NCBI RefSeq assembly: GCF_964355755.1
Contig: NC_092675.1
Coordinates: forward strand, 25,702,912-25,766,911
From: Antedon mediterranea
Lineage: Eukaryota > Animalia > Echinodermata
Direction of reading: 5' to 3'
DNA: 64,000 nt
Shown here: positions 658-52,787 of the stretch, piece after piece
Position numbering within the stretch: position 1 is the first letter of the stretch
How the letters are laid out: every line of letters starts with the position of its first letter
Program-made: the position numbers and the translations under genes
Notes under the pieces: generated by a model
Told to the model about the DNA's origin: nothing
Database searches by the model: none
What the model saw: only the letters and a program-made list of their open reading frames with translations

Positions 658-3600
658 CTGAGAGGTTAGCAGGAACAGAGGTTCGTGTTGGAAATAACAA
701 GGCTCCACCGTTTTCGGATAATGCACAATGTGCATTGACTATATCACGAATGGATGCAATCGCAATAAACCCTATAGAGATGTCATGCAACCCACCTATT
801 TCTGGGCGGTATGTCACTGTATATAAACAGATTAGAGGATATCTTACCTTATGTGAAGTAAAGGTTTACACAGGTGAGTACATATTAAATTTGGTAATAA
901 AGCCTTTACAGTTATTGTTCACCATCTATGGAATTTCGACATTGAATTCGTCTAAAAAATCATTAAAAACACATCTTTGTGCCAATTGTAGACCTATGCG
1001 TACAAAACACACCTTTAGAGCCATATGTGGAGGAAAAAAACTAAAATAATACCTACAATTAATTATCTATAGGCCTAATGTATGCTATTTTATTACATTT
1101 TATTACAAAAAAACAACCCGAAAATGTTGGAAAGAAGGAATCCTGCCATCAAACAGCTTTATTTACTAACTGTTAATAATATAACAAACTATAAGAACTA
1201 ACATTGGTTTTGTAGATATTGAAAAACCTGAAGTTGTGTGTCCAGATGATATAGAATTACATGTTGGGAATAATCATCGTTTACATCAAGTTGATTGGAA
1301 TCCTCCTGCAGTTTCTGATAATTTTCATACGGATCTTTCGGCAACCTGTTCTCCATCATCAGATTCTTTATTTCCAGTTGAATTCACCAAAGTTACTTGC
1401 TCAGCAACTGATGCAACTGGAAACAAAGGAAACTGTTCGTTTGTTGTAAATATTGCAGGTCAGGAAACTATTGCTAAAGCTTGGTTCCCACTAGGACGCA
1501 ACACAAGAACGCTTGTGATTGGTCAATTTGCTTACGTTGCGGTAATTACGTCATTGCGTTGCGTCCTAATGGGAACCAAGCTTAATAATGAAGAAAGAAC
1601 TATGATCGAATCTGTAGTTGGGCATAAAGGTACATCTATACAAGTTGTTTGTTTTTTCAGATGATAGGAAACCTGACCTCGTTTGTCCTGAGCATATCAC
1701 GGTGGGAAACAATACTGACCAGTACGAAGATCCAGTAACCTGGAGTGACCCAGCAGTGACCGACAATTTGCATACAAATATATCAGCAACGTGTACACAT
1801 GCATCGGGATCAATATTTGATGTTGGTTCAACTATTGTCACGTGTTCGGCAACAGACGGTACTGGAAATGTGGGAAGTTGTTCATTTGTTGTCCATGTCA
1901 TAGGTCAAACATTTATTTCTAGTAAGCAATACTTGAAACAACTTAACAGTCCTAACTTAGACAATTTCGTATTTATATGTAATGGTAGAAATATAATATT
2001 TAGGCCTATTGAAATACGCAATAGTTGCCACTGTAGACATAAAGTATTACATTATAAAGTTATTTTGTAATTAAATAGTTCGACACATCCCATAACTACG
2101 TCTTACTAAAAGCCAAATTATTACAAATGAAATGTTGACGGCGCAATTTTTGTAACGGTTCCAATCCATCCATGTCGTAACACTTTATATAACGGATCGA
2201 ACGTGATATCAGTCAACAACAGCCAAGCTTCTCAAGTGTCGCGCGCGTGGTTGCTAATACTGCTAAAAAGAACATCAACGTACAAAACTTTGGCATTATA
2301 ATGACATCGCACTCTCAATGGCGTAATAAGAGTGCACTAGAACATTGATTTAATATCATGTGACACACAACCTTTCATTAAAATGACAAAAATATAGGCG
2401 TTGTATAATATTGTTGAACTATATTAATTATATAATTAATTATTATAATGGACATTTGGTTGAATGTCATCATGTTTTATTATGTTGTGTTTAATTATGC
2501 TGTAGGCCTATGTATTGAATGGTAAATGGTCTGTTTGATATTAATATACAAATGAAAATATTTTAGATGATGTACGGCCTGTTCTCACTTGTCCTGGGCA
2601 CATTACCGTTAATGGTGATCAATCCAGGGATCCAATAACTTGGAGTAACCCCACATTGACATATAAAGGTACATTGTCAACGTGTACACCACCATCGGGA
2701 TATGTATTTGACGAGGGGTCAACCATTGTCACGTGCTCGGCTAGAGACAGCAATGGTGAAGTAATAAGATGTTCATTTGTAGTCCATGTTGAAGAGAGAA
2801 TTAATTCAGGTAAGTTATATTATTAATATCACATGACAACATAAATTATAAAAAATGTATTAAATTAAGGACATTCAAATTAAAAAGGTCTTAATAAAAC
2901 ACACATACCAATCACTACATTAGTGAAATATCTTTTTAAAATTTCAATTTTTCTACTTAGGCTTACGTTTAAAGTATAAACACATTTCATAATATTCCAT
3001 TTTAAAAATTAAAAACAAGTTTAAAAATTGGATTTATGTTTACGTTTAAGTTGTTTTTAATTTACAAAAAAAAAAAACGTTTTATTATTGGTAGATCTTG
3101 CTATCGGTATTGTGTGTCCAAGTGACATTACGTTTAATACGGATCAGCCTGTAGTTGTATGGAATGATCCCGAGTTGACAGACAACGTTGGTGGTACTGA
3201 CGTACAGCCAACTTGTAATCCACCATCTGGCGCTACGTTTGAAGTTGGATCAACCAGGGTTACTTGTTTCGCATTTTATCCTATTGTTAACATCAGCTGT
3301 TGGTTTAATGTTGGGAGTACAGAACGTTCTACGCCATTTGCAAGTTAGTAACAGTTAATTACAATTGATGCTTACTGCTAACTCAATTTTCATTAACATA
3401 AATATATCGGTGAGACGTGTCAAAATTTAAATAAAAATGTCAAGTTATCTGGGTCTTCAATAACCTAAATAGATACGATGATAATTATTGTTTGAATTAC
3501 TATTCTTAAAGATCATGCGCAAAGTGCCAGAGGATCAATGGATACCCATTCTCTGTTGTTAGCAGGACTCACGGTCATTATAACGCTTGGTCTTATCGCA

Positions 3601-4658
3601 TCACTTATAGGCCTAATAGTCAGGTAATACTATTTGTTATATTTATTGATAAATGTTGTTTATTTTGAAGACCAAATGCAAATTCTTTGGCATCAAAACC
3701 CCATCTTGGATACGTAGCCAATTCTTCTAACTATGGTTAGCAAGTAACAAATTAAGTATAAACGTTAAAAAGACTGATTTTAGGAACACATCAAAAATTA
3801 AATAAATTGATTAACATGGATATTAATATTAATATAGACGGTACAAAACTTGAAAAAGTAAATAACTGTAAACATTTAGGTGTCTTTATCGATGAAAATT
3901 AAAAATGCATAAACAAATAGATCAAGTGAAAAATAAAGTACTATCAGGTCTGTACTATCCAAAAAAATGCAGCAATATTTTCCCTCAAAATATTCAATCA
4001 TTAATGTACAAATCTATTATAGCCCACCATTTTGACTACTGCAATGTAGTATGGGGTCGTTGTAACCAAACCCTCAAATATAAACTCCAAGTAATCCAAA
4101 ATAGAGCGCCTAAAATAATTACACATAGCCTAAATCTAGGTATCACAGGCGCTCAAAGATTTAAATTGGCCTAATTTAGAAGAAAACCAATATTACAACG
4201 AAGCAGTCGCAATGTATAAAATAATGAATAACTTGACACGATCCTACTTAAGAAACAGGTTCTATGAACGCAAACAAACATATACTACTAGATCAAAAGA
4301 TATTCTAAGTTTACATAAGGCAAACACTGAGTATAAAAAGAAAAGTTTCTCGTATTCTGTGCAAAGCTATGGAATAGTTTAAATGCTATAAACTCAAATG
4401 CAATTACAGCTCCAAATATATATATAATATATTAAAAAAATTATAAATGACCAAAGATAAAATATACTTGAAACTCTATGTTTTTCATGAAATCATTTTT
4501 TTTTTCATAATGTACTGTAAATGATAACTTGTGTAATAGTATAAATAGTTTTGTAGTAAGTAAAGGCCTTGTGAAAAACACCAATATGGTGATTCAAGTG
4601 TCGCATCCGTTTTTAAATAAAGTTCTTCTTCTTCTTCTTATTATTATTATTATTGTTA

Positions 4659-4728
<70 letters not shown>

Positions 4729-4886
4729 GTTAGTATTAGTATTATTATTATTATTATTATAATCTATTTAATGTTAATGACTGATGACTGTTTTATTGTT
4801 TCAGATATCGTAAAAAAAAGAAGAATAAATTTGGAATTAATATGAAAGCAGATGAAGGAACAGTGACATGGGAGCTAATGGAATAA
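658..4886 (+). CDS. F-type lectin-HYRx4-TM receptor, copy 1 (5'-partial; signal and first two lectin exons lie upstream of the window)
   Basis: Exons 658-873 (xERLAGTEVRVGNN...CNPPISGRYVTV...LTLCEVKVY, F-lectin C-half), HYR exons 1216-1458, 1661-1921, 2567-2809, 3095-3343 (P.h.CP..I...V.W..P...DN....TC...SG..F.VG.T.VTC.A.D..GN...CSF.V.V), TM exon 3512-3623 (SLLLAGLTVIITLGLIASLIGLIVR), tail exon 4805-4886 (YRKKKKNKFGINMKADEGTVTWELME*). AG/GT boundaries, consistent frame. Confidence 0.85.
1477..1583. mobile_element. PIF/Harbinger-like MITE (relatives at ~18643-18837, ~33485-33606, ~38789-38915)
   Basis: Terminal inverted repeats AAGCTTGGTTCCCA(C)TAG / CTAATGGGAACCAAGCTT with shared internal CGCTTGTGATTGGTCAATT and TTGCGTTGCGT motifs. 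Confidence 0.72.
3780..4765 (+). mobile_element. Degraded CR1/L2-clade LINE 3' fragment with (TTA)n tail in the last intron of copy 1
   Basis: Disrupted RT C-terminal peptide (LMYKSII..HFDYCNVVWG...KLQVIQNRA..IIT) followed by a (CTT)n(ATT)n microsatellite at ~4622-4760. Confidence 0.8.
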
Positions 4887-4936
4887 TGTTTAATTCAATT
4901 TAAAAAAAATGTTTTTCTAATAGTCTTTTATTATAA

Positions 4937-10032: not shown

Positions 10033-13000
10033 ATGTTTGCGTTTGTATACACCATCGTCTGTTTTATGACATTTATGCATATATCGACATGTAGAGTCAT
10101 GTTAACATGCTTCGATACGTTCGAATTAGGTAAGTAATTTTTTTGTCTAACCTAATTTGTGTGCATATATACATAAATATTCGAGGAAATTGTGTAACTA
10201 AACAAAAAAAAATAAGTAATAATAAAATAAACTAGAGGGTACTCCGAGAGTACAAGGCTCCGCCTACTGTAAAATTCACCTACATAAAATGTCTCCGGAT
10301 ATATTTTTTTACAATTTGTTTATTAGCTCTAAATGTAAATAGGCTAACTGCACACTACAAAGTTGTGGATGAGAGTTTGGTATAATGGTTATGTACACAG
10401 CCTCTCACAGTTGAGATCGCTGGTTCAAGTCCGGACTGGACGAAGGGATGGAATTCCCAGACATCGGCGTTCCTATGGTGATTGTAATATCTGCCATTTT
10501 GGACGATATAGCAATATATCATCTCCTGTATGAGCTCAAGAAATGTTTACAATTGATGATATTTTAGGCTGTGTTTGTGGTGTATACCATCAAATAACCG
10601 TAATTTTAAACCTTAGTTTCTATTTTTAAAACTTTGTTTATAGTAGCATCTAGGCCTAATTTAATAATAATAGTGAATCTAATTATTAGTAGGCCGTATT
10701 GTCATAACCATCCCATCATACATTTCGTTTAATTTAAATGCAATTTTCTAGCAGCAATTATTCCACAAAATAATAAATAAATGAAAACAAAAAGCACCTT
10801 TAAAACGGTTGTCAAAATTGTTTAGTGTCAGAGTTGAAACCAGCTACACAAGTTTCAACAGCGTGGTCCGGTTCAGCCTCAAGGGCTGTGGACGGTGGAG
10901 ATTATTTCGGCAGCGGTTCATGCTCGCAAACGGGTAAGTCATATTGCGTATTGCATATTGTTGATGAATGTATTTTCTGTATGAAATAGGCTTAGAAATA
11001 CTTCTAACGTTGTTTTACCAGCATCCATTAAAATATTAACATATTCATATTTTTCAAACTTTTTAAAAATGAGTAAGCCTATATTTTTAAATTTTATAAT
11101 GAAAACTTTGGCTAAATATTTTTATAGGCCTAATCTTAGATTTTATAATCGTCCTTCTCGCCCCAGGTAAACTCTGCTTTCTTTACAACCCATGCAATAG
11201 TGTAAATACCATGCTTAGAAACGATGAGTCTTCAAATGACAATATTTTTCCATTGTCTACAATTCTTCTATTATCACGTTATTGCATGTAGGTTATTTTC
11301 TTTATTTTTCTTATTTTCGTTTGCCTATCTATTTCTTTTATTAAAGGTAGCCTATATACAACGTGGTGGTATGTTGACCTCGAAACGGAAATATTCATTT
11401 CGAAGATTGTTATATTTAACAGAGAAGATTGTTGTTGTAAGATTATATTAATAGTAATTTTAATGCAATTCTCTCTGGGCGGTTTCTTCCTTTTTAAATG
11501 AAATGAAATTAATTTTTCATCTTTTTCTCATTTTCAGATTGTTCAGCGGCGCTTAGAGGCACGCTATATTAAATTATGTTTAAAAGTAGGCCTATTCTAA
11601 GTATTGCATGTGTTTACTAGTCCACAATTGAGAGTGTTGAAAATCACTTAGACCACTGGGGCTTTCGTGGTATTGTTCAAATTCGATTTGATAGCGAGAC
11701 TCGACGTGGTACAGCAGAAGAGCTGAAATATGATTGTTAAGTCTTGTTTTGCATATTTTCAAATATTGCTAGTGCACCTTGGTATAGTAATATAATTGAG
11801 CTCTTTCTTATTTTTGTTTAAGTCGATTCGTTAGCCGGTCTTCGTGTTCTTGTTGGAAATAACAATGTTTCACCATTTTCCGGTAATTCGCAGTGTGGGC
11901 GGATGCTTTCACAATTTGATTCAATCGCAAGCAACCCTATATTAATAACATGCAGGCCACCTATTTCTGGGCGGTATGTTACTTTAATTAAATCAGGTCT
12001 ACGTGACCATCTTTCCTTATGTGAAGTAAAGGTTTACAAAGGTTTGTACATACTTGGTAATAGAACTTTTTTATTTTCTTTTTCGACATCATGAACTGCT
12101 TCATGGCACACATGTAAACTTAATTTGTCTAAAAAAAGCCATTAAAATCACATCTTTCCACCCAGTCAGAGAATCCTATTAATTTCTTAAAATAATAATA
12201 ATAATAGTCTGTTCTTATATAGCGCATATAAGCAGGCTCTCAATGCGCAAAAATAAAAGCAGGAAATATAATAATTGTGATAGTCTAAATTGCACCATGC
12301 AATTATTATTATTGTCATCAATATTGTTATAATAAAATAAACATGTGTATAAAAAATAATATATTTTCGAGAAAAAAAATATAATAAATATATATATTGT
12401 ATTTCTTTATAATAATCTTAATAAAACGAATGGTCGAACAAATGGATGTAAAGTTGTGTAACCAAAAAAATTGCATTAAATTACCGACTGTCGAACTTAA
12501 CAATATAAATAACATTGGTTTTGCAGATATCGGAAAACCTGAAGTTGTGTGTCCAGATGATATAGAAGTAAATGTTGAAAATAATCAGACTTTACATCAA
12601 GTTAATTGGAATCCTCCCGAAGTTTCTGATAATTTTCAGACGGATCTTTTGGCAACCTGTTTTCCATCATCAGGTTCTTTATTTCCAATCGGATTCACCC
12701 AAGTTACTTGTTCAGCAACTGACGCAACTGGCAACGAAGACTACTGTTCGTTTGTTGTAAATATTGCAGGTTGTAACAACATGGATAAAAAGTTTTTTTT
12801 TCAACCTTAATTACTCTCAGGACCCATGGGGAAGTCACATCCGAGCATTTACCTTCTTCAGATTTAAGTTTATTGTTCTGATTCTAATTGCTCATGTTAA
12901 TTGTTTAAGGGTTATTTTTAAAAGCAATTAAAGTTACATAAAACTCTTTGAGAACGTCAGCAACTCATGTTACAATTAGACACAACTGTTTCACTATTTT

Positions 13001-15945
13001 ACGCATGAAAGAAACTTGTACATCACAATTGCAATATATTTTTGTTCTATAGATAATAAAGAACCAGATCTAATTTGTCCTGAACATATCAAGGTAAACA
13101 ACCATACTGACCAGTACGAAAATCCAGTAACATGGAGTGACCCTACAGTGACCGATAATTTACATAAAAATATATCAGCAACTTGCACACCTGCCTCGGG
13201 GTCTATCTTTGACGTTGGATCAACTATTGTCACTTGTTCTGCAACAGATGGTACTGGAAATTTTGGAAGTTGTTCGTTCGTTGTCCATGTCGTAGGTGTA
13301 GTATTTATATCTGGTAAGCATAACCGTTGTAGGCCTACCTATGCTATCAGTACCTAGTTAAACGATCTGTTAAACTATAACTAGAGTGTTGCTTGTCTTA
13401 AAAAGGAAAAATGATAAACAGTTGGCATAACGTAATAAACATCTAATAAAGTAAAATCGAAACAAGTAAATGTTGCAATAGCTCTTACTGTTTTCCCCTG
13501 AACATTTTTTTTTAAACAAAAAATGTTGAATATGGCATTTTAATGTCGCTTAATGGTTATTCAATTTGACCAAACAGTGGATACACAAATAATAGTCAAT
13601 CGGAAGCCCATTTTGTCAGGCTGTAAAAAAGCTTTTATTTATAAGGCGCCTGTAAATAACATTATATTTATAGATGACGAACGGCCCGTTCTCATTTGCC
13701 CTGAGCACATTACGGTAAATAGTGATGATGAGACTAGAAAACCAGTTACTTGGAGTGACCCAATATTGACACTGGAAGGTATATCAGCAACGTGTACCCC
13801 TCCACCGGGGTCACTCTTTGACGATGGTTCAACCATTGTCACGTGTTCTGCTAGAGACAGCAATGGTGGCGTAATAAAATGTTCATTTGTTGTTAATGTT
13901 AAGGAGAGATTTATCTCAGGTAAGAGTGTTTAATATTGAACTAGCAATACAAAGAACAAAATAAACAGCTGGGCTAGTCAATAGAAATACTTCAAAAGAA
14001 TGACATATTTGCAGAGAACCAACAACTTAAACCTTAGCACCTGTTTGGTCTTTCCTTGCCTTATTGTTTTGTCTTCTTTGTATTTTGTATGGCAGAAAAT
14101 TGAATAAATAAATAAATAAATAAACCATTCTAAATAATTGAAAGTGGAAATATATGGTGTAAATTGTAGTACCAAAGTTTTAGAAGAATTTTAAAGTTTC
14201 CTTGAAATACTATGTTGTCTTTCAAAATCTGGGCTGCCATACGCCTACTAATTCTAAAAGTTTGGCAAATGTAAAACAAAAGGCAAGAGAAAGGTAGACG
14301 ATGTGGCTTTCAATTTGATTGTCCATTTGCAGTAGAATTTATATTTTTCTTGGAAGAATATTTAAGCTGTGGTGCTAATACAGAATTTTGGAACAAGTCA
14401 GAGTTAATATAGAATTGCTACCACTACAACAACTATTACCACAACAGATTACTATTACTATTAATACAGACAAAACTCACAATTACAACATTTTTTTTTC
14501 AGAATGTGTAGAATTGTTTTTGAATAATTAAAATTTGTTTATCAAATGTTCACGTTAAACATACATAATAATTAATATTGTGATCAACCTTTTTTTATTC
14601 AACAGATCATGATTGCTACTAATAACAAGTTGTAATAATAATAGTAGGCTACAGTAGCACATACACTTGATTACTTACAGTGTAAACATATGACAGTTCA
14701 GACCAAAACACAAATTGAATATTTTTAGTAATATTTTAAAATTATAAAATTGACTTTAAATGTACTGAATCAAAACAATTGTGTCAGTATTTGGTGAATC
14801 ACTCAACATAAACTACGTTTTATTTTTTGCATTGGTAGATCTTGTTATCGGTATTGTGTGTCCAAGAGACATTACGTTTAATACGGATCAGCCTGCAGTT
14901 GTATGGAATGATCCAGAGTTGACAGACAACGATGGTACTGACGTACAGCCAACTTGTAATCCACCATCTGGCTCTACGTTTGAAGTTGGATCAACCAGGG
15001 TTACTTGTTACGCAGTTTATCCTATTGTTAACATCAGCTGCTGGTTTAATGTTGAGAGTATAAAACGTTCTACGCCATTTGCAAGTTAGTACAGTCATTT
15101 TGGGGTTATTAAAATCTTGAAAATGTTCGGATAATAGCTATATCATTCACATTGACTTCATGAAAAAAAAAATTAAAAATTAATATTATTATCTCGAGTT
15201 AATAGGGCGCCCTCTGTCGGTGTGAAAGTATATTTTTCTGTTTCTATATTATATCTATTTCTATATAATTAAATCATGTATGCTATTAATATAAGTACTT
15301 AACATAATTATGTGTATATTATAATTGTTTTTAAACTGAAATTTAAAAAAAACCTGCATGATAAACATTAATTGTTAAGTTATTATTTTTGAAGATCATG
15401 CGCAAAGTGATATCGTGTCCAGTGACTCCGATAAGGGGTCCACCGACAACGGGTCTACTGACAGCGGGTATACATGCACAATTCCTTGGTTGATAGCAGG
15501 ACTCATGTTCTTCGTAGTGCTTGTACTTATTGCATCAGTAACAGTTGTGGTTGTCCGGTAATGTTTATATTATTTGTAATATTCCTAAATCTATGAATAT
15601 CATTGTTATATGTTATACAGTAGGAAGCCAAATATAATGTTTATTACGGAATTATGTGGAATTAATGACATACGAAAATATTGAAATTACAAAGGCAAAA
15701 TCACATTTATTAATACATTTTATCTCGAGTGTACATATTTGCTTTACCAAAACAATAGTTGAGTATATACATACAAACAAAGCAAGCACACGTTTTGGTT
15801 TTAATTTAATAGTCCTAGAAATAGAAAAATTGTTTTGTTGTCATGTTTCAGATATCGTAAATCAAAGCAGAGCACACTCGGAATCATTATGAAAACTGAA
15901 GAAGAATCAGTGTCCTGGGAAAAGGGAAATAATATAATATACTAA
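10033..15945 (+). CDS. F-type lectin-HYRx4-TM receptor, copy 2 (~588 aa, non-canonical sugar-binding motif)
   Basis: Exons 10033-10129 (MFAFVYTIVCFMTFMHISTC, signal-like), 10826-10933, 11347-11436 (WWYVDL...NREDCC), 11823-12041, 12527-12769, 13053-13313, 13674-13919, 14839-15084, 15395-15557 (TM WLIAGLMFFVVLVLIASVTVVVVR), 15852-15945. Total 1767 nt, open frame. Confidence 0.88.
10231..10500 (-). mobile_element. Partial Helentron/HINE-like element (same family as 31201-31750) in copy 2 intron 1
   Basis: ACTAGAGGGTACTCCGAGAGTACAA..CTCCGCCTACTGTAAAATTC..CTACATAAAAT shared with 31201; includes a tRNA-like segment. Confidence 0.7.
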
Positions 15946-17956: not shown

Positions 17957-20900
17957 ATGTTTGCGTCAGTGTACACTCTCGTCTGTTTTATGACTTTTCT
18001 GCATATATCGACATCCAGAATCATTCAGTCATGCTACGATACGTTTGAATTAGGTAAGTTATACTCTATTTTTTCAATCATTTAATTATTTTAGCATACC
18101 GGTAACGAGTCTTTGAAACCCCATGTTTAACGAAATAGCACAAGAGTTACACTAGGTAAGTTATTCTGGAATTTATTATGTAATGTAAATATATAATTAC
18201 TTTTATTTCAACGGTCTATTTACTATATATTATGATAGATAAGTTTCAAAGTTAGTATTTGCCATTGGTACCCAGATTTTTCAATTAAATTCAACTTGGT
18301 TTTATTTTCCGCACAAGGAAAACCACAGGCCTATATAATATGGATGATTCATATTTTAAGATAGTTCTATAACGTAATGTATATAATACTGTCGATGATA
18401 ATAATACTAATAAAGGCGAATCATATAATAGAAATAAATAGATCAGAGACGCTTTTACAGCAAATTTGAACCAATTATTATTGTAGATTTTGAAAACGTA
18501 CAATGCGTCGATTTTCTTTCCGTCACAAAAGCCAATATTATACTTTACGGAACACGACGGTTAGTGGGGAGGACGACGAATATCCTGAGTTCGCTAGAGC
18601 GTAAAATCATATACAGTCAGCATAGCCATAGTTTTATTAGGCAAGCTTGGTTCCCACTAGAACGTATCGCAAGGACGTAAACGCAACGCAAGCGTTTTAA
18701 CCAATGACAAGCGAAGTTATAGACAGTTATCAATCACAGGCGAATAAGCCATCGCTTGTGATTGGTCAATTCACTTGCGTTGCGTTACGTCCTTGCGTTG
18801 CGTTACGTCCTTGCGTTGCTAGTGGGAACCACGCTTTACGCACTTTTAGAGCCTTTAGGCGAAGACGTCGACCGACAGTCTCTCCCTCCCCTGTCTCGTG
18901 GCGCAAGCCCTTCTGAATAGCTTGGCTATGGGGATACCGAATAGGCCTATTATAGTCTTCCTAGCTAGGGCCTCGCATTCAACCGCCGCTTTTAAGACAG
19001 CCATTTTAACCTAATAAAAATGTTATTTCATTAAACAATTAAATTAGAAGTTCAAATATTATTTAGAGTTTTGAAAATTTGAATTGAATATAAAAGGTTA
19101 TATATACATTATTTCTAGTTGTTCTCCGTAAACGGGAAAATGGCAACTTTATCGTCCTCAAAAAGTTAAGACGACGGAATTTCACTCTAAGCTCCGCCCA
19201 CTTTGTTCAAGTTCATGCATAAAATTATTCATGGCTGTGGCTTCCCGTCGTGTTTCGTAAAGTCCCTATTATTATGTTTACGTATCTTTTACAAAGTTTA
19301 GAACTTTATATATATTCCTGCTTTACCTCAGTCACATAAGGTTCTGGATTATAAAAATAGGCATACGTCTACATCTCCAAAATCATCAAAACTATGCTCG
19401 TTATAAATATATAACTTTTAAAACCACTCTTCATTTTCTTCAGTATCAGAGTTTAAACAAGCTAGACAAAGTTCAATGAATGCAAATGGTGTTGCTTCAT
19501 ATGCTGTTGACGGTGGATTAAGTGGGCAATACAACAGGCGAACTTGCTCTCATACCAGTAGGTATACGAGCCTGAAGTCTTTTAAATACTATTAAAATGG
19601 TTAATATGTTTATATGCTCTAATTCTTGCCCACCCGCAAGGGGACTGGAGTGTAACTAAATGTGTTTATACTATTAGTAGTGAATGGCAATCAGTTGAAC
19701 GAGGAAGAGAAGAAGAATTATTTTACGAATTGAAAGATTTAATGTTTAACGATTTGCCGAGTTAAATTATCCAATAACGCTGGTAACCAGGATGGAAGGG
19801 GCGGGTGAATGTTCCCCTTTTGTAGAAAAACAACATCCTTTGCAAAAATCCTGGCTCGTTCGTTTCATAAATAACAAGAAATATTTCTTACAAAAAACGC
19901 CGCTTGACATTTTAACATCAATCATTGTTCTTTTGATTAATTTAAAATTAATTATTAAAAAAATGTCATTTAATCGCAAAAATACATACAAATCACAGAT
20001 AGTTCTTTAATTATGAATCACATGCCCATTTTTTCACTAGTTAATTGTATACACAGCATTTGAAAGAAGACATGTGTATTATTTGCCAACAAACATTAAT
20101 CTACTAATTTAGAAATGGAATTTAAAAATGGTCAATCTTGAACTTCAATGTGCTGTAGTCTGTTTGTTGTGACCTCAACCTGTACTGAAGGCATGTAATT
20201 AAAAACCCTCTAGAAACAACGTGACTTCACGGTGGTACAAGTGACAAAATTCTTCCACAATCTGTTGATTCGCGTCAACCACCAATCAAAGGGCGAGAAT
20301 CCATAATCGTTACCGTAAACCGTGGGCCCTCATACTCTCTTTTTCCTGACGTATTTTGGGTCCAGCAGCTGGGACCTATAAATTATAGTCGAGTTTACAA
20401 ATTCGCAAAACTGTCAGCCTTAGATACTAAAGCTACCGCTATGAAACAGCTTATTAATGAATATGTTCTTCTGGACATAGCTGGCTAGAGCCGTGGCGCA
20501 AAAATATTCTGCAAACAGGGATTTTTTATTTTTTTATTTAAAGCTCAACAGAATCGACCGTGGTGGTATGTTGATCTCGGAACGGAAACAGTAATTTCGA
20601 AGATTGTTATATATAACAGAGAAGATTGTTGTGGTAAGAGTACATTAATCATTGATAAAAAAAATATTGGGGCGTTTTTTTAGGGCATATCAATTTTTAC
20701 CTCTGTTGCATGCGTGTATTGCTATCGCTGTAGACGGTTAAGCAAGTCACTATCCGTGTTTATTATATCTTTTTAAAATGTTTGGGTCCAACCCATGATA
20801 ACATACAATGACAGCATTCAGTAGTCTAATGGTAATGTCAATCAATATTTCTCAGTTTAGTACATATTTAAAATTTATCATCGTTTATTTATCGTGCATT

Positions 20901-23900
20901 GTGGTAACATTCAATAACTTTATTTTTTAAGCGGAGAGGTTGGCAGGTATGGAAGTTCGTGTCGGCAATAACAATGTTTCGCCTTTTTCGGGTAATGCAC
21001 AATGTGGATCGACTATTTCACGAATTACTGCAATCGCAATAAACCCGATAGAAATATCATGCAACCCACCTATTTCTGGGCGGTATGTTACTGTATCTAC
21101 ACCGATTTTAGGAATTATCACATTATGTGAAGTAAAGGTTTTCAAAGGTGTGTATAAACATCAATATACGATAAACATTTTTAAGGTCTATTATGTGTTA
21201 TTATCTATTATTGGCAGAACGCTTGCAAAGTTACTACGTATATTTGTTTTATGTAAGTTTTTACACAATACACAGCAAAAAGTTACCGTCGACATATTGC
21301 TATCAAAATCTCATGTATCTTCAATAGGCGCCCATATCAAATAAAACGCCCTCTGTCGTTTTTATGCATTTGCCGAGTATTTTTCGCTCAGAGTTTTTAC
21401 AATAAACAAATTTTATTTTTAAAACAATATACCGACATTTTATAAGTCAAAGACATACTACATTAGGTTTTATAGATATTATAGATATATGTTATAGATG
21501 ACAACTTTATTTACCAAATGTTTAATAATATAATCAACTAAGCACTAACATTGGTTTTGTAGATATTGGAAAACCTGAAGTTGTGTGTCCAGATGATATA
21601 GAAGTAAATGTTGATAATAACCAGACTTTGCACCAAGTTACTTGGAATCCTCCTGAAGTTTCTGATAATTTTCATACGGATCTTTCGGCAACCTGTTCTC
21701 CGTTATCAGGTTCTTTATTTCCCATTGGTTTCACCCAAGTTACTTGTTCAGCAACTGACGCAACTGGAAACGAAAGAAACTGTTCTTTTGTTGTAACTAT
21801 TGCAGGTCAGGAAACTAATGATACTATGAAAATTACAAAGTTTTATTTTAAATCTTTATGTTTTGATATAGGAGAATTAATTTTAAAAATTAAGTCACTA
21901 ATTGTATGGTTAAATGTATTATTGAAAGACAACTATTAGACCTCCTTCAAACCCCCCCACCCCAAGATATCTAATTTAAATATTACATTGTTCGTTAAGC
22001 TCTGTCTACACTATCAATGACATCATCAAGTCCATATGCATAATATATAGGCACATTACATAAAATGTGATACTGTAGACAGAACTTTATATAACGAATA
22101 AACATGCCTATTTCTTAAATTATAATTTATATAATCATAATTGAAACATTTTGAACATATTGAACCAATATACTCTTGAACTAAGGCTCTGTCTACACTA
22201 TAACACTTTATGTGCCCATATATGGCCATGGTGATGTGAGATCACTGCCATATTTGAGCATATCACTACCAATTGGGCAAATTACACTTTTTTGTCAACT
22301 AGTTTGATAGTGTAGACAGAGCTCAAGATCAAAATACTTATTATGTTATTTTTTAAATGTTTTTTAGATAATAAGGAACCAGACCTCGTGTGTCCTGAAC
22401 CCATTATTGTTAACAACAGCACCGACCAATACGAAGACCCAGTTACCTGGAGTGACCCAACCGTAACTGATAATTTGCATAATGATATTTCCGCAACTTG
22501 TTCACCTGAATCGGGATCAATATTTGGTGTTGGTTCAACTATTGTCACGTGTTCTGCAACGGATGATACTGGAAATGTGGGAAGTTGTTCATTCGTTGTC
22601 CATGTCACGGGTCAAAAATTTATTTCTGGTAAGCATAGGCCTAACTTCTACTATTTTTCTTTATTATCTAAAGAACAGACAAATATACATATACATAATA
22701 TACAGTATAATTGCAATTGTCTCAAGAGGGTAAACTTTTGTCTTTAAAATTAGTATTGCTATATCTCTTTTAGCTATTCATCGTGTCCGTGGGTGGTTAT
22801 GGGTGCAGAATAAATCTCTTTCTAATTCATCAAAATATATTTATGACAATTCTATTCTATAAAAGTTTTCATGTGCTGCCCTACGAAGAACAGAGCACCT
22901 AACAATAATAGTATTTTAATTAAAATGAAGAAGTTTTAAGTTGACGTTTTCGCTCCTCTCAAATCGACAGGCACCGCGTTCCAGATCCCCGGAGCGGTGA
23001 CAGAAGAGACATTGTCACCAGCTTTCCGATTAGATCGTGGAACGAAAAGTCGAGTGGGACAATTGGAGGAGCTGATCAAAATTGGAATGCAGTATTTTAT
23101 TGTGTTCCTTAATGCATTAGTTTTAATTTGCATAATGAATATAGCCATACAGAGTTATTTTAACGAACACATTTACGTTTGAATATGCAACAACATTTTC
23201 AAAATGGTGCTTTTACTGTTTAATATTTTATAATAAAACACTTAAAACTTAAATGTACAGGTGACCAACGACCTTTCCTCACTTGTCCTGGGCATATTAC
23301 CGTGAATAGTGATCAATCTAGGAACCCAGTTACTTGGACTGACCCCATATTGACGCCGGGAGGTATATCAGCAACGTGTACACCTGCGTCGGAGTCAGTC
23401 TTTGACGATGGTTCAACCATTGTTACATGTTCTGCTAGAGACAGCAATGGTGACGTAATAAGATGTTCATTTGTAGTTTATGTTAAAGAGATATTAAAAT
23501 CAGGTAAGATAATATTATATTAGTATCACTTGACAACATTGAATTTTAGTGTAGTCATTAATTCATGCAGTTAAGACAGAAAACGGACACCCTTAAAACA
23601 TTCTAAATAAAAAGGGAAACCACATTATGGAACCCGTAGTGTCCAAAGTCGGATAACGGTCTCTAGAAGTGTGCTGTATGTCATGTTTCTTAACGTCTGT
23701 GCTTACAATTACAAGGATAGTTTCTAGAAGAAGTTTATGATATAATGTTTACAATTTATATGTAGGTGCTTTTTGGAACAATTTGAAAGTGTTGGCAAAT
23801 TATATTTTATTGTAGTACCGGTATGAAATTGGATGTTCTGAAAAATTTGAGTCTACGTAACAGTATTGCCAATTTGAATTGTATGTGTCAATTAGAGTAG

Positions 23901-25274
23901 ATTCCATTTACATTTTTTGTGGAGAAATATTAATTAAAATTAACTATTATTTTGAAACACTAAATCTAGAATTTAGGGACAAGTAAGCCCTGAGAGTAAC
24001 TTTGCTTGCTGATACTACCACAATTGCTTCCAAACACAAATTCAACATTTCTTTATGTTCAAATTGTTTACAAATGTTGATACTGGATTGAAATTGTATA
24101 CTTTATAGGCCTACATTGTAGGAAATTCACTTAAAATCGATTTGTTTTAATATATTATGGGTAGATCTCACTATCGGTATCGGTTGTCCAAGTGACATTA
24201 CGTTTAATACGGATCAGCCTGTAGTTGTATGGAATAAACCCAAGTTGACAGACAACGTTGGTACTGACGTACAGCCAACTTGTAATCCATCATCTGGCTC
24301 TACGTTTGAAGTTGGATCAACCAGGGTTACTTGTTACGCAGTTTATCCTATTGTTAACATCAGCTGCTGGTTTAATGTTGGGAGTATAGAAAGTTCTACG
24401 CCATTTACAGGTCAGTCTACAACCTTTTAATGAAACACTAGTAATAATTGGTGATGATACTCTCGTCCGTTGAAGTTTGACCGCCTCAGACATAATTGTG
24501 TGGTTCACCCATTGTTCCTATTTAAAAACTGGAATTCAATCACGATATCAATCTTTGTTTAAATGATTATTTTTTCAGATCGAAGTGACAGTGGGTCCAC
24601 CAACAGTAGGTCCACCAACAACGCGTCCACCGACAGCGAGTCCACCGATGCACAGTCTTGGCTAATTGGAGGACTCGTTATCATCATAACGCTTGCTCTT
24701 ATAGCAGCGGTAACAGTTTTGGTTGTCAGGTAATGTTCATAAATTTTGTTTATTTTTAAGATAGCCAGACCAAATGAAAGATCTTTCTGCTCAAACTATG
24801 TTACAAACATAGATTCCATTTGATATTCATTTCTGGCTGACTGATGAAAGATAACGGGTTCCGTTTTCGATCGTAAAAATCATGGAAAAGTGATATTTAT
24901 TGTTCGGCCGATACAATGATTTTTACAACTTAAAATAAAAAAGAAAACAACTTTTTATTTCCTTTTTAATTTTCGCTAAAAAAAGAACAAAAATGTCATT
25001 CTTAAATAACCATCGCTTTGCCGAAACATTATTCCAATTTTTAGAAACATACCGTGCATATAGGTCGCGTACAGGAATCAAGCGAAGAGAATGCATACTT
25101 TAGCTAATTTTAATTCAGCTAATTTTAATTTAACATAATAAATTCAATAGATTCAATAATTCAGGTAAAATTAACTTTGTTTATTGTTTCAGATATCGTA
25201 AATCTAAGCAGAGTACACTTGGAATCAATATGGAAACAGAAAAAGACTCCGTGACCTTGGGAATTGTTAATTAA
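17957..25274 (+). CDS. F-type lectin-HYRx4-TM receptor, copy 3 (~580 aa, canonical HX26RXDX4R motif)
   Basis: Exons 17957-18053, 19444-19557 (AVDGG...CSHT), 20544-20633 (PWWYVDLG...NREDCC), 20932-21147 (AERL...LCEVKVF), 21563-21805, 22368-22628, 23261-23503, 24165-24410, 24579-24729 (TM), 25193-25274. Total 1743 nt, open frame. Confidence 0.9.
18540..19267. mobile_element. Non-autonomous DNA transposon with a nested MITE (18643-18837) in copy 3 intron 1
   Basis: Inverted ends ACTTTACGGAACACGACGG / CCGTCGTGTTTCGTAAAGT. Confidence 0.65.
21998..22324. mobile_element. Two adjacent short MITEs
   Basis: GCTCTGTCTACACTAT...TAGTGTAGACAGAGC inverted repeats at ~21999-22085 and ~22186-22323. Confidence 0.65.
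22860..23120 (-). mobile_element. L2/CR1 LINE 3'-end remnant
   Basis: RLFVPRSNRKAGD...SVTAPGIWNAVPVDLR is a typical L2/CR1 ORF2 C-terminus. Confidence 0.6.
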
Positions 25275-26071
25275 TGTTATTCCAAAATATGTTATACATG
25301 TATATAGGCCCTACGGCCTTAGGCCAAGAATATATATATTGTCTGTACTGTAGTTCAAATTGCTTGCACTAAGATTCGACATAGCTAGTATAATACCATT
25401 CACGATAAACATTGTATGGCCTACAATTGTAGCAGATTGTATACAGAATATGATACCTGACCTCAACTGACCTAGCTTGACTACTTTTTTATGAGACATT
25501 GTTCAATACATTTTCAAAGAAAAGTAGGTAGTATAAAACTGTAGATAATTGTTGATATACCATGAAGATAAAGATGTGTTGAAGAATTTGGTAAATGTTT
25601 TAATATATGCCTTTCTATTATTATTTGTATGCAAACGATTTTTATACTTCGTAATTTTAACTATCTCCCCAATGATCAGAAAGTGCTTATCTAAACGCCC
25701 TGCCCCCTCTCCTACAAATAAAACATAGGGAAAACGTCAACCGTATTAAATTAACAAGTTTGTGGTTCAGTACGTTGTACAGTCAAATTATATAACAAAT
25801 AAAATAGTATTCAATTAATTTACAAGTGTATCCAAACTATTAAAAATCTAACTGCACAAATTTAAGGTATTTTTCTGTTCCATATAGACGTGACACAGGC
25901 TTCTGTGGATCAGCAACTTATAATACGATAACCATTAGGCCCTATGTAGGAAATTGTGGTTGCTACAATTTCCTTAAACTACTACTGTGTACAATTCCAA
26001 GTAAATAAAGGAACTGAAAGAGTCTCGCTTTACATTAATTTCTCTATTCTCTGGTTGAACATTCTTACAAA

Positions 26072-29000
26072 ATGTTTGCTCCAGTATATATCATTGTCTC
26101 TTCTATGACATTTCTGCACTTTTCAAAATCTCAAAAAAATTCATGCTACAATACTTTCGAATTAGGTAAGTAACAACCCTTCAATTTATTGTAATTTATA
26201 AATATTTAGTTGATTAGTTGAGTTAATATGTGTATCTATATAAAATGCGCATTCTGAACTGTCAGTTACTATTTACCAATTCAAAAAACGTTTGTCAAAA
26301 TTATTTAGTTTCGGAGTTCAAAGAAGCTAAACAAATTTCAACACATTCGTCCAATGCAGTTGCGGCATGGGCTGTTGATAGTGGAACAGATGGAATATTT
26401 GCCAAACATACGTGCTCTCACACTCGTAAGTGACATTACATAATTATGTAAGTTTGGGAGTCTTTTCACTTCTATATGTTATTTATTGACAACATAATAA
26501 TTAACATGGTTCACATTATGAGAAGCGACACCCAGGAGTGGACGCAGAGAGTCATTATCAATGTATTCCTTCTCTGTGTTTCGATTTAGAGTGAATTACC
26601 TACTGTTCGGACCGATGATATCGGCTAACCAACTGTAGAATGAAGTCAACTAACCATAACAGGCCCTAAATTCAATTGATAACAGAATGCAATCCACTAC
26701 TTTAATCGGTCGTAAACAGTAAAAGCATAAACTTCTTCAAAAACACCTTTTAAAAAACATATAGTATTTATAAGGTAAGATGCCCCTTATGAGTTTTACT
26801 AAATACCCTTTTTACTTTATTGTGGTAAGAATTTCATGTTTTCATAATTTTGTTTTTTAAAAGATCTCGGACCGAATAATCCATGGTGGTATGTTAACCT
26901 CGGAACGGAAACAGTTATTTCAAAGATTATCATATATAACAGAATAGACTGTTGTGGTAAGACTATTAATATGATATTCAACGGTTCAATAGGCTTATTA
27001 GTATAACATTGTTTAGTATTGTTAATATAATATTATAATAAATAAATGTCTGATTTAGTATCTAAGCTTGGTATGATACTGCTAGATCATTACCATTAAA
27101 TTAAAACAATCTGTCTTTATGTGCTTAATAGCGCATTTACATTAAAAAAAACATTTTACATTTTTTTCACACTTAAGCAACTAGATTAGCAGGTGCGGTT
27201 GTTCGTATCGGCAATAGCAATGCTTCACCATTTTCAGAAAATTCACCATGTGGCGAGAGAATTTTAAGAACAGATGCATTGACCAAAAACCCAATAGAAA
27301 TGTCTTGCAACCCACCAGTTTCTGGGCAATATGTTACCATATCGCTACCAGGAAGTCAACCACTTACTCTGTGTGAAGTAAAGGTATACAAAGGTACTGT
27401 GTACAGATTATATCAACAAATGCACTTACATGCTTAGATCTGTGACTTATATTGTCATTACCTACGGCGTTATTATTTACTCATATGTTATTCACATTTA
27501 TTTCGAAAATTCCAAAGATAACAAAGATATTATGAACTAGTTCAGGAATCGAATTTTAAAGTAGAAGACTATGACATTCCCTCAACGGAAAACAAATTCT
27601 AGCAAAAGGAACTTCCAATTTTAGATAGTTTAACATTTTATGCATGACATGCTTACATTTACAACAAATTATTTTCAAATGTCCTTAAAATAAAATAAGA
27701 AAATTTAAGGGAAGACAATTAATTATTTTTCAGATATTGGAAATCCTGAAGTAGTGTGCCCAGATGATATAACAGTAAGTGCTGGAATTAAACAATCTAT
27801 AAATCCAGTTACTTGGAATCCTCCTGAAGTTTCTGATAATTTTCATACGGATCTTTCGGCAACCTGTTCTCCGTCATCAGGTTCTTTATTTCCAGTCGGA
27901 TTCACCAAAGTTACTTGTTCAGCAAGTGACGCAACTGGAAACGAAGGAAACTGTTCGTTTGTTGTAAATATTGCAGGTCAGAAAACATATCTTTCTTTAA
28001 CGAATAAGCCGAATCGCAGAAATTAAACTAGTATGGACTATTAAAAATGCAAGATATTGTTGTTCTTTAGATGATAAGGAACCAGACCTTGTGTGCCCTA
28101 AACATATCACGGTTAAAAACAATACCGATCAGTACCAAGATCCAGTAACCTGGAATGACATCACAGCATCCGACTTGGTTGGGGGAAGCGGGGAAGTTTG
28201 GCTTCATGGTAAGGGCATCTGTATGCATTGTGATACAATTTTCTCAAACATCCATTTACTTTAAAAATCAGAATTTGCCACTAGCACCAGAAGTGGCTGA
28301 ACTTGTCTGCTGGGTAAAAATCAGACGACAGATTACCACGCAAGCTTGACAAAAAAAACTTGGTAATTTGTTATCGGGCCTAAATTAAACTTCCACAGTA
28401 GGCCTACTCCCTAACTGACCTCAGTTTGTTTCTCCTACGTTAGATATATCATCAACTTGTACACCTGAATCAGGATCAATATTTGATGTTGGTTCAACTA
28501 TTGTCACGTGTTCTGCAAGAGATGCTACTGGAAATGTAGGAAGTTGTTCGTTTGTTGTCCATGTCATAGGTCAGACATTTGAATCCAGTAAGAATAAGTT
28601 TTATATTCTAAAACAGGTATCATCAACAAATTAAAACAAAATACAGGAGGCTACTAAAATGTAATGATAAAAAACGTCGACATTCTTTAAAACACCATCT
28701 CCATTTGTTGTGAAATTGACTATATATATTATTTAAATAATATATTGTCAGAAATATCGTGCAAATAATTGTGAAGTTTTAATTGCAAGAGCCAATCAGA
28801 AAGCCTAAAATGTTGGGTTTTTAGACACGTATATTTGTTTCTGGTAAGGATACGTAAGCAAGATAAGCACTCAACCTAAATCTTTGAATGAAAACGACAA
28901 AGAATTAAAAAAAAATTTTTTATTATGCTATATAATATATCATTAATGTCCCATACAAATACTTTACCTTAGATGACGTACGATCTGTTCTTACTTGTCC

Positions 29001-30690
29001 TGAGCATATTAGTGTGGACAGTGATCAATCAAGGACAATAACTTGGAGTGACCTTACATTGACATCTATGTCAGCAACGTGTACACCACCGTCGGGGTCA
29101 GTCTTTGACGATGGTTCAACGATTGTCACGTGTTCGGCTAATGACGTTAACGGTGACATAATAAAATGTTCATTTGTTGTTCATCTTAAAGCGAGATCTA
29201 GTTCAGGTAAGTGTATGTCACTTGGAGGCCCCTCACAAGGTAGGCCTACAGTTTTTGTCGCGAGTAGCGTCTGCATAAGCTTAGCAACAGGAGGTTGAAA
29301 AATATACAACAATAATATAAACAAGGCCATATACATAGCTGCAGTCGAGTGCGCAAATTTGAGTTAGTAATCACTTAAACAGTAAACATGTTTGATATCT
29401 TTTTAAAAGTCTTTAGAGCTAGATTTAAAAAAAAATATCATTACATAATTTTATTCCAAGATATATTAGTGTAAACATAGACTGTCAATGACAGAATAAG
29501 CACATTTACATGATATGGCATGTCTGTGTGAAACGACGTCCAATAGGAACATTGCCATTCAAAATAATAATCAAACAAATAACAAACACAAGAAAGATCC
29601 AAGTATTCAAAACTTTAGTTTGGGTATGGGACATGCACATTGGAAATAAATCATACTACATCGTAACCAAACTTGTGCTGGAAAATACACTATAAGAGCA
29701 GAACTGAAAGACTAATTAGAATTTACAGCCTAACTACTTATTTTGGTTTGATGGCACTGTGGAATAAAAAATTATCATATAATTTAGAATTAAATTAAAA
29801 ATTATGCTAAACCGGACTTTTAAATGTACTGAATAATGGTTATTATGTTTTAATTATTATTGGAAGATTTTAGTATTGGTATTGTATGTCCACGTGACAT
29901 TACGTTTAATACGGAACAGCCTGTAGTTGTATGGAATAATCCAGAGTTGACAGACAACGTTGGTACTGACGTACAGCCAACTTGTAATCCACCATCTGGC
30001 TCTACGTTTTTAGTTGGATCAACCAGAGTTACTTGTTACGCAGTTTATTCTATTGTTAACATCAGCTGCTGGTTTAATGTTGGGAGTCTGATAAATGCTA
30101 CACAGTTACCGGGTTAGTAGCCTACACCTGATATCAACTATATAACACACAATAAATAGTGCAATGTTCTGCTCGCGTGCATTTTAAATATTCTTTTATT
30201 CTGTATGCTTTTAAAATCTTTCTTTAAATCAAATTTGTGATTTTCTTTATAGTTCCAAACCTATAAAAATCGGAAAAATCAATAACATTCTTAAATCTTT
30301 ATTTTCAAAGGGTATTCTCATAGTGACAACGAGTCTAAAGACACACATCACTATTTTGTAATAGGAATAGGCTGTGTAATGGTTGTTCTTATTGCATCAG
30401 TCATAATTGTGGTTATCAGGTAATGTTCATATTATTATTTACGATTACGAACCAACTTAGAGTTTCAAAAACTGTTCGATAAGATCAATTTCTATATATT
30501 TGACTCATACTTACCTAGCATTCTCAAGAAAATGTCAAGACATTATGTTTATTATTTCCTTTTGAAAACAAACCTAACTTTACTGAAATTAATTTGTTTC
30601 AGATATTACAATGCAAAGCGTAAGCAGATTACATTTGAAATCAATATGAAAGCACAAGAAGAAACAGTGACTTGGGACATAATAAAATAA
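26072..30690 (+). CDS. F-type lectin-HYRx4-TM receptor, copy 4 (~573 aa if the extra HYR2 intron is spliced)
   Basis: Exons 26072-26165, 26309-26425, 26864-26956, 27178-27393, 27734-27976, 28071-28208 plus 28444-28587 (split HYR2), 28973-29206, 29867-30112, 30311-30419 (TM), 30603-30690 (YYNAKRKQITFEINMKAQEETVTWDIIK*). Total 1722 nt, open frame. Confidence 0.8.
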
Positions 30691-32848: not shown

Positions 32849-35800
32849 ATGTTTTCTAGAATATATATTCCTGTATCTTTATTGACGCTTGTTGAATCTT
32901 ATAATCCATTTGTCGCCGAACGTTATGGTAAGTTCTGCACTCCATTATTTAAGTATCACATAATAAAATAAATAAATCATGAGAAAGTAGCAGACTTGGT
33001 GTGATGTTTTCTAAAAAAACATAAACTGTCGTGTGTTTGACAGTTTCTCCATCATGTTGACCAAAAAAATCATCAATAAATTACTCCGCCGGCCATACTG
33101 TAGACATTAGAGATATGCTGAATGTATAACAAGCTACAAAAGTTTGTGTTTTGAACAGATCTGGTTTCACGGGGAAAAACTGCAAATCAGAGTTCAACGC
33201 ATGGACCTAGTGTGGCAAACCAGCAGTTGATGGCCGTAAGGATGGAAACTATTGGGCTCATTCTTGTACCCATACAGGTAAGTAGGCCTAATCATGTCTT
33301 AAACGTAAGGTAACAGTTTAGGGACTACGATAAGTATGCAATGTACTTTCAACATCGTTTCCTTAATATGTAAAGTAAGACATTTGTAAACAATATCCCA
33401 GTATAATCTCTTATATTATTACGACCTATTATGCATTCGCAAAAGACGGGTTAATACAAACAGAACATAAGTTTTCCATCTTTTAAGCTCGGTTTCCATT
33501 AGCTAGGACATAACACAGGGAAGTAAGGGCAACGCCAGTGATATTACCAATCGCAAGCTGTCATTGGTCATTTCACTTGCACTGCGTCTACGTGGGGACC
33601 AAGCTTTCAAACATTATTTTACGTACTAGTGTAAATACTAATTATTTAAAAGTTTCTTTCACATTCGTTTACTTTATCTGCAATCAATTTAAGCAGCACA
33701 CGAGACAAACCCTTGGTGGTATGTTGATCTCGGATCATCAAGACTTATTGCAAAGATCATCATATATAACAGAGTTGATTGTTGCGGTAAGAGTTTTATC
33801 AGTACATTATTTTGCTAATTCCTGTATTTATTTAAACAGGCAAAAAGATAATTATAATACTATGGAATCGTAAAAATCAATTGGAAACGTTTATGAAAAA
33901 AAAACACCTTTTACAGCGTTGCAACTAGTAGTAGGCCTAAGGCAAAACTAAAACTTCAACTCTTAACTAGTTGTTCTATTTTTTGTTTTAAGGAGAACGG
34001 TTAGATGGAGCTATTTTGGGTGTAGGAAACGACAAGGTATCGCCGTTTAGAGGAAATTCACATTGCGGGACATTAGTTATAGCCGATAATAGCCGGCGCA
34101 TACAACGACTGTGCTTTTTAGAAGGCCAGTACATTAGTGTTTATATACCAAAAAAGGAGGCTCAGTCTTTTTCTATTTGTGAACTAGAAGCATACGTAGG
34201 TATGTACAGTATAATCTGAAATAATTAAATTCACAGAAAAATAATAATTAATTAATATTTTGTCACCGACATGGTTAATTTATGATTTGATTTAATTTCT
34301 GGTATTCTTCATTCGATGAAATTTGAAAAATTATTGGTTGCTTTACCGCTTTCCTGTTTATTGTAATAATAAAGGTCTTTGTGAATAATACACCAATAAC
34401 GACATAGAAACATCATAAATATATAATATCTCTTTATATAATGTATTTAGAAATCCTTCCAAACAAAAAAAAAGCTAATTATTTTTTATTATGTTACAGA
34501 TACACAGAAACCTTTTGTTATTTGTCCAGATGACATTGAGATAAATTCTGATGCTAATCAGAATTTAAATCCTATTACATGGCGAGATGCGGTGGCATTT
34601 GACAACACTGGTCATAAAAAGAATAGGCTTAAGTTACGCTTCCATGGTCATAATAGACTAGTAGCCACTTGCTCAAAGCCATCTGGTTCATTATTTGAAA
34701 TTGGGTTCACCAAGATTTCTTGTTCTGCAACTGACCGAAGTGGAAATGAAGGCAATTGTTCGTTTGTTGTTCATGTCAAGGGTTAGACATTGCGTTTTTG
34801 TTTCATTGTTTAGGCCTAATATCTTAGGTTACTGGGAGTATTGTAGGTGTCACTACCAGATTCTTAGCATGTATTCCGCAGTAGGCCTATCATGGGAAAA
34901 TTACGGCATCTCACGTGGTGCTTGTATTATGTAAGGTTATTACGGTCTATGATAACTACACTAGGTAAAACAACATCATATTAATATAGGGTATATATCT
35001 ATTGTTTTCAAAGTCAAACTGAAGTAATCGTTATTTCCAATGAAACTTACTTAGCAAAATAATCATTTCTTTCATTTCTAAAACCAACTAAATTAGACAT
35101 CAAAGAGCACGCTTTCACTTGTCCCGAACACATTACTGTGAAAAATGACGTTGACCAGTCTGAAGATCCTGTAACTTGGAATAAACCCACAGCGATCAAC
35201 AAAGAACATAAACCTATACCAATCACATGTACGCATGCATCTGGATCAATCTTTGACGTTGGTTCAACTATTGTCACGTGTTCCTCAACAAGAGGTACTG
35301 ACAAAGAAAGAAGTTGCTCATTTGTTGTACATGTCATAGGTCAGATATTTCTTTCAGGTAAGTCTCGTTGTTTTATTTACTCATAAGTGGTGTCCATTTA
35401 TACGGCTGTAACTTGTGAAAAGTTAAATCACATTTCTTGTTCTTACAATACCTTTTTTTTTGTAGATGTCCCTATCGTGATGTGTCCTCAAAGCATCTCA
35501 TTGTTCTCTGATAAATCTTTGCAACCAGTGACATGGAACAAGCCAAAGGTGGTGGACGATTTTGATAGCGATTTAGTGGCAACCTGCATACCTTTCTCTG
35601 GTGATTTCTTTGCACGTGGATCAACACAGGTTACATGTTCAGTGACCAATTCATTCGGAAACAATGGCAACTGTTCTTTTGTTGTTGATGTCACGAGTCT
35701 CAAGTCACCACAAGGTGAGAATTATTCTTGTCACTGCCTTCAATTATCGTATAAGAATTCCCTCTAAATTATATTACACGTGTAGGACTACAGTATAACA

Positions 35801-41860: not shown

Positions 41861-42116
41861 TTGAGCGAGCATAGTCAATGTTAATGAGTTCAACTACAAT
41901 TATGCCTAAGCCTATGTCAGGGAAGAGTAAGATTAACTCTTCCCTGATTATGTAAACAAGATATCATGCTAACTTGTAAATAATAATAAGGTAAAAAGCC
42001 AATAGAAAAAGGTCAATGTAATAAGACACAATTCATTGTTATTTGGCACCGGAATAAAATCTCCAAACTGTGCCAGTACCAAGTATGTAATGACGTTGTT
42101 TAATAGATATACCGGT

Positions 42117-52724: not shown

Positions 52725-52787
52725 CGTATTATAATGAAGACATGCTTGTTCGTAGATAGGTCCTTCCTCCGTACGTTTAAAATCCAT
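52725..52787 (-). CDS. Possible upstream coding exon of caveolin (long isoform)
   Basis: TGCAG acceptor with exon starting at 52792, ATG at 52787, MDFKRTEEGPIYEQACLHYNT, then GTATGG donor (phase 0). Joins in frame to an AG acceptor 9 nt upstream of the 50798 ATG. Confidence 0.4.

Follow-up and report, generated by a model that had tools for sequence, protein, structure and literature searches.

The second of seven tandem F-type lectin genes in the crinoid Antedon mediterranea is an intact and spliced gene whose fucose-binding triad has two of its three residues replaced. We consider it somewhat probable (about 55%) that this gene, copy 2, encodes a surface receptor, as predicted from its sequence, whose likely ligand is not fucose. 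The window, by which we mean the whole stretch of 64,000 nucleotides analysed (contig NC_092675.1), consists of AT-rich animal DNA, and the seven lectin genes occupy its plus strand from 658 to about 48,330.

Copy 2 comprises ten plus-strand exons, all bounded by GT..AG and free of stops, and its translation is exactly the 588-residue A. mediterranea protein XP_071954519.1 (P0001). The product is a predicted membrane protein with a signal peptide, an F-type lectin domain, four HYR repeats and a membrane anchor. Exon 1 (10033..10129) holds the predicted signal peptide (hydropathy 1.6 over residues 1-19). The lectin domain (10826-12041) is divided over three phase-1 exons: exon a (10826..10933) contains the VDG calcium motif, a short loop, Cys65 and Gln67; exon b (11347..11436) the retained Arg94, Asp96 and Cys97-Cys98; and exon c (11823..12041) Ser101, Cys123, Cys142, Cys165 and Glu166. 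Exon b matches Pfam PF22633 at E 7e-5, which is under the curated cut-off because a single exon was scored. The HYR repeats follow at 12527..12769 (PF02494, E 1e-17), 13053..13313 (E 1e-14, donor fixed by an RNA joint), 13674..13919 (E 1e-6, RNA joints) and 14839..15084 (E 1e-6, RNA joint). All four exceed the Pfam cut-off, giving the layout of a type I membrane protein with HYR repeats. A Ser/Thr/Asp spacer and a predicted transmembrane helix (about residues 537-557, hydropathy 3.0; like the signal peptide called by hydropathy only) are encoded at 15395..15557, and an RNA joint connects them to the last exon (15852..15945) with a short basic tail and the stop. This tail is of the same short type as in the His/Arg/Arg neighbours, and neither an ITIM nor a YxxL-type motif is present in it. 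We discarded a possible alternative acceptor near 11538, since translation from it meets a stop and the spliced RNA continues at 11823.

The lectin exon junctions assumed in the preliminary description, which was made from the letters of the window, recur in spliced contigs of run X5, obtained from another sample and study. The joints lie at 10933/11347 and 11436/11823, are flanked by GT..AG, and join three exons with 0 differences to copy 2. Contigs from the DNA runs X1 and X3 also show 0 exon differences, and the substitutions are thus present in sequencing data, in the form of assembled contigs rather than raw reads. X5 is RNA by an automatic guess, backed by the GT..AG joints, and none of the runs listed as containing the sequence is recorded as RNA; since these joints indicate RNA, copy 2 is transcribed if X5 is indeed RNA, at a level that contig depth cannot rank. 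The same run also has a low-depth contig that retains an intron.

An orthologue of copy 2 is present in a related organism under a different label (organism B; runs X6 and X8 of one study), with two introns about 1.8% diverged (14 of 799 bases). No difference is listed there in the codons of Gln67, Arg94, Asp96 and Ser101. For the contig over Gln67, 18 of 20 differences are listed, and we infer that any difference in the Gln67 codon would have passed the listing filter. The lectin exons are separated by nine non-synonymous and four synonymous changes, and a whole codon is deleted. Of the nine amino-acid differences, five (Gly48, Tyr59, Gly61, Ser70 and Phe99) map to the pocket loops, and the set of nine falls at family-variable positions (p = 0.009). 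The pN/pS between both sequences is about 0.7, a value that does not separate selection from relaxation.

The intact copies of the array share one layout: a signal peptide is followed by a single F-type lectin domain, encoded by three exons, by three or four HYR repeats and by a membrane helix with a short tail. RefSeq proteins match copies 1, 2, 3, 4 and 7. Copy 1 (658..4887, XP_071954524.1), with its 3' part in the window, has His/Arg/Arg in the full protein. Copy 3 (17957..25275, XP_071954520.1 and XP_071954521.1) carries the exact motif and is predicted to bind fucose. Copy 4 (26072..30690, XP_071954523.1) and copy 7 (43867..48335 with a first exon near 42320-42401, XP_071954526.1) have His/Arg/Arg at a spacing of 27; the sister of copy 7 in the tree is Anneissia XP_033107303.1. 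Copies 5 (33159..36455) and 6 (39143..41900) are frameshifted in lectin exon a (33159-33277 and 39143-39268) as assembled, possibly through assembly error. His and Arg codons are readable in both, the full His/Arg/Arg set in copy 5, and most of lectin exon c is missing in copy 6. The array therefore does shed genes.

Several further observations concern the array and its surroundings. Between 19444 and 21805 the RefSeq isoform XP_071954521.1 of copy 3 splices lectin exon a to HYR1 and omits exons b and c; a headless receptor is allowed because the exons are all phase-1. Copies 1-3 diverge at synonymous sites by 0.04-0.07 in HYR4 (3095-3343, 14839-15084 and 24165-24410) against 0.42-0.55 in HYR2, a difference that suggests exon-wise gene conversion within the array. 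HYR2 of copy 4 (28071-28569) is broken by about 280 unrelated bases, which RefSeq spans with a short extra intron. Fragments of high-copy interspersed repeats, recognized by very high contig depth, are located at 10230-10430, 11648-11700, 31200-31410 and 50130-50230, one of them in intron 3 of copy 2. The regions 3850-4380 and 4980-5630 are degraded and by eye resemble retrotransposon ends, and exon-like pieces on the minus strand (50600-61020) belong to an unrelated gene past the array. Beyond the window, protein searches, which leave the family count incomplete, find the Antedon paralogues P0158 (XP_071954528.1), P0005, P0012 and P0004. Among the paralogues out there are a short form that lacks HYR repeats and is close to copy 1, and another in which His>Ala and Asp>Asn have occurred.

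The central claim of the preliminary description, that copy 2 has exchanged His for Gln and the last Arg for Ser, is borne out by the codons and by the alignment to eel agglutinin (1K12). Gln67 (CAA, 10927-29) corresponds to His52, Arg94 (AGA, 11421-23) to Arg79 and Ser101 (TCG, 11828-30) to Arg86, with Asp96 at 11427-29; instead of the canonical His-Arg-Arg/Lys, copy 2 reads Gln67/Arg94/Ser101. The motif spacings given there hold as well: exactly 26 residues from Gln to Arg in copy 2, H-X26-R-X-D-X4-R in copy 3 and H-X27-R...R in copies 4 and 7. The X26 form fits the His52/Arg79 numbering; a review writes the motif as HX24RXDX4(R/K) (PMC5712786). An extra codon in the last loop (Arg159, His161) might relocate the lost residues, an idea left aside here; the stretch has the commonest family length (258 of 529 domains among the matches listed).

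The reading frame is open and Cys65/165, Cys97/98 and Cys123/142 are all present, as had been noticed, so that the cysteines of the three disulfides are complete. By sequence the calcium site is present too: VDG at 54-56 with Ser64, Cys165 and Glu166 as equivalents of Ser49, Cys146 and Glu147. The last position of the h2DGx motif is Gly instead of N/D/S, but x is a backbone ligand. Kept calcium and clamp positions include Asp55, Ser64, Cys65, Asp79, Arg149, Cys165 and Glu166. Equivalents of the Asp64-Arg131 bridge are retained, as are Arg94, Asp96, Cys97-Cys98 and the equivalent of Phe45 (Phe60). The loop after DG is indeed shortened, by two residues compared to 1K12: it has 8 residues, against 10 in 427 of 529 non-redundant domains among the matches listed. 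Sequence searches match copy 2 to 1K12 (E 2e-13) and to striped bass FBP32 (3CQO, E 8e-27). The AlphaFold model of residues 31-170 has pLDDT 83-97 per 10-residue block, and its best Foldseek matches are solved F-type lectins, led by 1K12 (E 5e-11), although AlphaFold with a family alignment would yield this fold regardless. Both sequence and predicted fold thus place copy 2 among F-type lectins. For the HYR repeats the model cannot be relied on (pLDDT under 50, noisy alignment) and was left out of account.

When the triad columns are left out of the tree, copy 2 is nested within crinoid His/Arg/Arg domains (enclosing-node supports 84-87), and two Anneissia japonica relatives retain the triad. 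The loss in copy 2 is therefore derived. Its tip branch is the longest of the array (0.50, against 0.01-0.32). We analysed selection with a self-written codon model, for the lectin domain on copies 2, 3, 4 and 7 (144 columns); the results are to be read with the four sequences and the signs of gene conversion in mind. For the whole lectin domain dN/dS is 1.07 on the copy 2 branch against 0.25 in the background (p = 0.0016), and is indistinguishable from 1 (p = 0.89). The HYR stalk (three repeats, copies 1-4) shows a background-like 0.33 on the same branch, below 1 (p = 0.003). The acceleration thus affects the head but not the stalk.

Within the head, rates differ largely between positions. 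At 44 core positions conserved in the family (defined from 522 non-crinoid domains) dN/dS is 0.16 on the copy 2 branch and below 1 (p = 0.04), against 1.74 (p = 0.20) at the 100 non-core positions. Private changes of copy 2 affect 4 of 43 core positions compared to 27 of 69 others (p = 0.0005). For 36 binding-loop positions, whose borders are our approximation and were set after viewing the alignment, dN/dS amounts to 3.3 and is above 1 (p = 0.012, one of four tests against 1). Among 2000 matched sets of random sites, 1 attained this value, which drops to 1.5-2.2 under a longer synonymous branch. Background loops are faster too (0.45-0.47 against 0.2-0.3). Overall, the rates exclude a general decay of copy 2 and lean towards a remodelling of its binding face.

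The preliminary description had implied that the pattern of copy 2 is rare; this is not supported, as many family members show it and triad loss has already been published. The family search returned 5,852 relatives, 150 of them listed; 161 proteins then gave 615 domains in 160 proteins, 529 of which remained below 90% identity and 503, free of gaps at the triad, were used. Among these 503 domains from the matches listed, 254 have a complete triad, 162 keep two residues, 70 keep one and 17 none, so that 87 have lost at least two. Loss of His and of the last Arg with retention of the first Arg, as in copy 2, is seen in 65 and Gln/Arg/non-basic in 27; for the latter, a weakly resolved tree requires 17 changes. 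His is most often replaced by Gln (57). Again for the matches listed, the losses of His and of the last Arg coincide (82 of 219 against 27 of 284). Where Gln replaces His, the last Arg is lost as well more often than with other replacements when redundancy is set at 90% (p = 0.0001), though not when it is set at 60% (p = 0.16); the query has Gln itself. These counts are not family-wide rates, because the sample favours multi-domain proteins that resemble a Gln-bearing query. Ten proteins were looked up: one is an intact paralogue from Antedon, and the other nine come from marsupials, frogs, a skate and a Paenibacillus. A brittle-star domain reads Gln/Arg/Trp. Many domains of the marsupial multi-domain F-type lectins (P0024, P0032, P0037, P0057) read Gln/Arg/(Gln, Glu, Leu) and apparently form a stable triad-less group, on which the searched literature holds nothing specific besides the review PMC5712786.

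Comparison with known systems shows what copy 2 shares and where it departs. Eel agglutinin of Anguilla anguilla (1K12) and FBP32 (3CQO) agree with it in fold, disulfides and calcium positions, but copy 2 has Gln and Ser at the equivalents of His52 and Arg86 and a CDR2 loop two residues shorter, and is membrane-anchored via HYR repeats whereas both others are soluble. The same review notes that some F-type lectin domains depart from the motif (PMC5712786). One of these is Drosophila furrowed (CG9095), which like copy 2 has two triad residues replaced and for which sugar binding is inferred to be lost or changed (PMC5712786; PMC12221842). Its replacements are aliphatic and its other domains CTLD and CCP, in contrast to the Gln/Ser, HYR repeats and adjoining intact-motif siblings of copy 2. 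As in Antedon, the bindins of the Pacific oyster include both triad-keeping and triad-lacking variants within a single species: the triad is missing from 5 of 10 modelled isoforms, and positive selection around the pocket is reported (PMC5712786). Bindins are acrosomal repeat proteins diversified via recombination and splicing, whereas nothing links copy 2 to gametes here. Other crinoid proteins likewise have HYR repeats after a lectin domain. Anneissia XP_033107303.1 and XP_033105153.1 keep His/Arg/Arg, whereas at least one triad residue is gone from Anneissia XP_033111723.1 and Antedon XP_071961244.1 and XP_071953750.1; the pair that has degenerated furthest belongs to a lineage separate from copy 2. 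All five are without a functional name, and no description of the family was found in the literature searched, whose coverage misses most subscription journals.

We propose that after tandem duplication the His/Arg/Arg siblings may have retained a presumed fucose-binding role, and that copy 2 would thereby have been freed. It would have kept the barrel, the three disulfides and the calcium clamp, with five pocket loops remodelled. The resulting pocket is predicted to be less basic, with Arg94 alone, and to carry an aromatic ring of Trp46, Tyr59, Phe60, Tyr72 and Phe99. Such a pocket would be suited to a different glycan or to a protein partner, presented away from the cell by the HYR stalk, possibly in immune recognition or adhesion. 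The changed ligand specificity suggested at the outset thus receives indirect support, from splicing, retention of the orthologue, constrained fold and calcium positions, and change concentrated in the loops.

We favour a changed ligand over a silent head, although the latter is a possible, if less probable, explanation. Here the surface of a ligand-free head drifts, and the protein persists for a structural or adhesive function, for which a folded head and stalk suffice. This has been proposed for furrowed, for whose adhesion role there is no evidence of lectin-domain involvement (PMC12221842). A whole-domain dN/dS of about 1 would fit such drift, as would values of 0.55-1.0 at positions that are neither core nor loop and the 21 of 31 private changes that fall outside the loops. 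The family-profile score of copy 2 is also low: 131 bits, against 141-155 for copy 3 and six other full-length crinoid domains. Moreover, the coupled loss of His and last Arg across the family is expected once a site is already dead. A loop dN/dS above 1 and the constraint on core and calcium positions argue against it.

It seems improbable that copy 2 has retained some binding of fucose or of fucosylated glycans, be it with lower strength or in a changed pose in which Gln67 takes the place of His. Arg94, Asp96, Cys97-Cys98 and Phe60 are all in place and Gln is the commonest replacement in the family, but in the eel structure the axial 4-OH is held by all three basic residues, and isoforms without the triad are described, from models, as unable to bind fucose at this site (PMC5712786). 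The literature searched contains no triad mutagenesis data.

The non-binding decoy considered in the preliminary description is not supported, as a domain unable to bind a ligand presumably cannot compete for it. In a modified form, copy 2 would co-assemble with fucose-binding siblings as a dominant negative, or intercept a pathogen protein that targets them. F-type lectins can trimerise, as stated in the review (PMC5712786), and copy 3 has an isoform without most of its head. Nevertheless the tail is of the sibling type and carries neither an inhibitory nor an activating motif, and the head, which shares 51-58% identity with those of copies 3, 4 and 7 (52-58% with copies 3 and 4), would make a poor mimic; we regard this explanation as very unlikely. 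An early pseudogene or an assembly error is largely refuted: copies 5 and 6 are frameshifted, but the frame of copy 2 is unbroken, its splicing is maintained and it does not evolve neutrally along its whole length, its letters are identical in DNA and RNA contigs, the deletion in organism B keeps the frame, and HYR and core dN/dS are below 1.

Triad-less F-type lectin variants are already known, and the sequence pattern of copy 2 alone is not surprising. The reviews record such domains and only guess at their function (PMC5712786; PMC12221842). It might be argued that Gln/Arg/non-basic represents a second F-type binding chemistry with a shared non-fucose ligand, repeatedly reached in crinoid, brittle star, skate, frogs, marsupials and Paenibacillus, but we consider this doubtful. 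If true, copy 2 and copies 1 and 3 would form a natural matched pair for finding the shared ligand and for giving a name to a family of crinoid receptors that is subject to diversifying selection. Copy 2 is spliced, has a single lectin domain and lies beside close intact siblings, and an array experiment could tell a ligand switch from silence. Its value therefore lies chiefly in providing, together with these siblings, a clean test pair.
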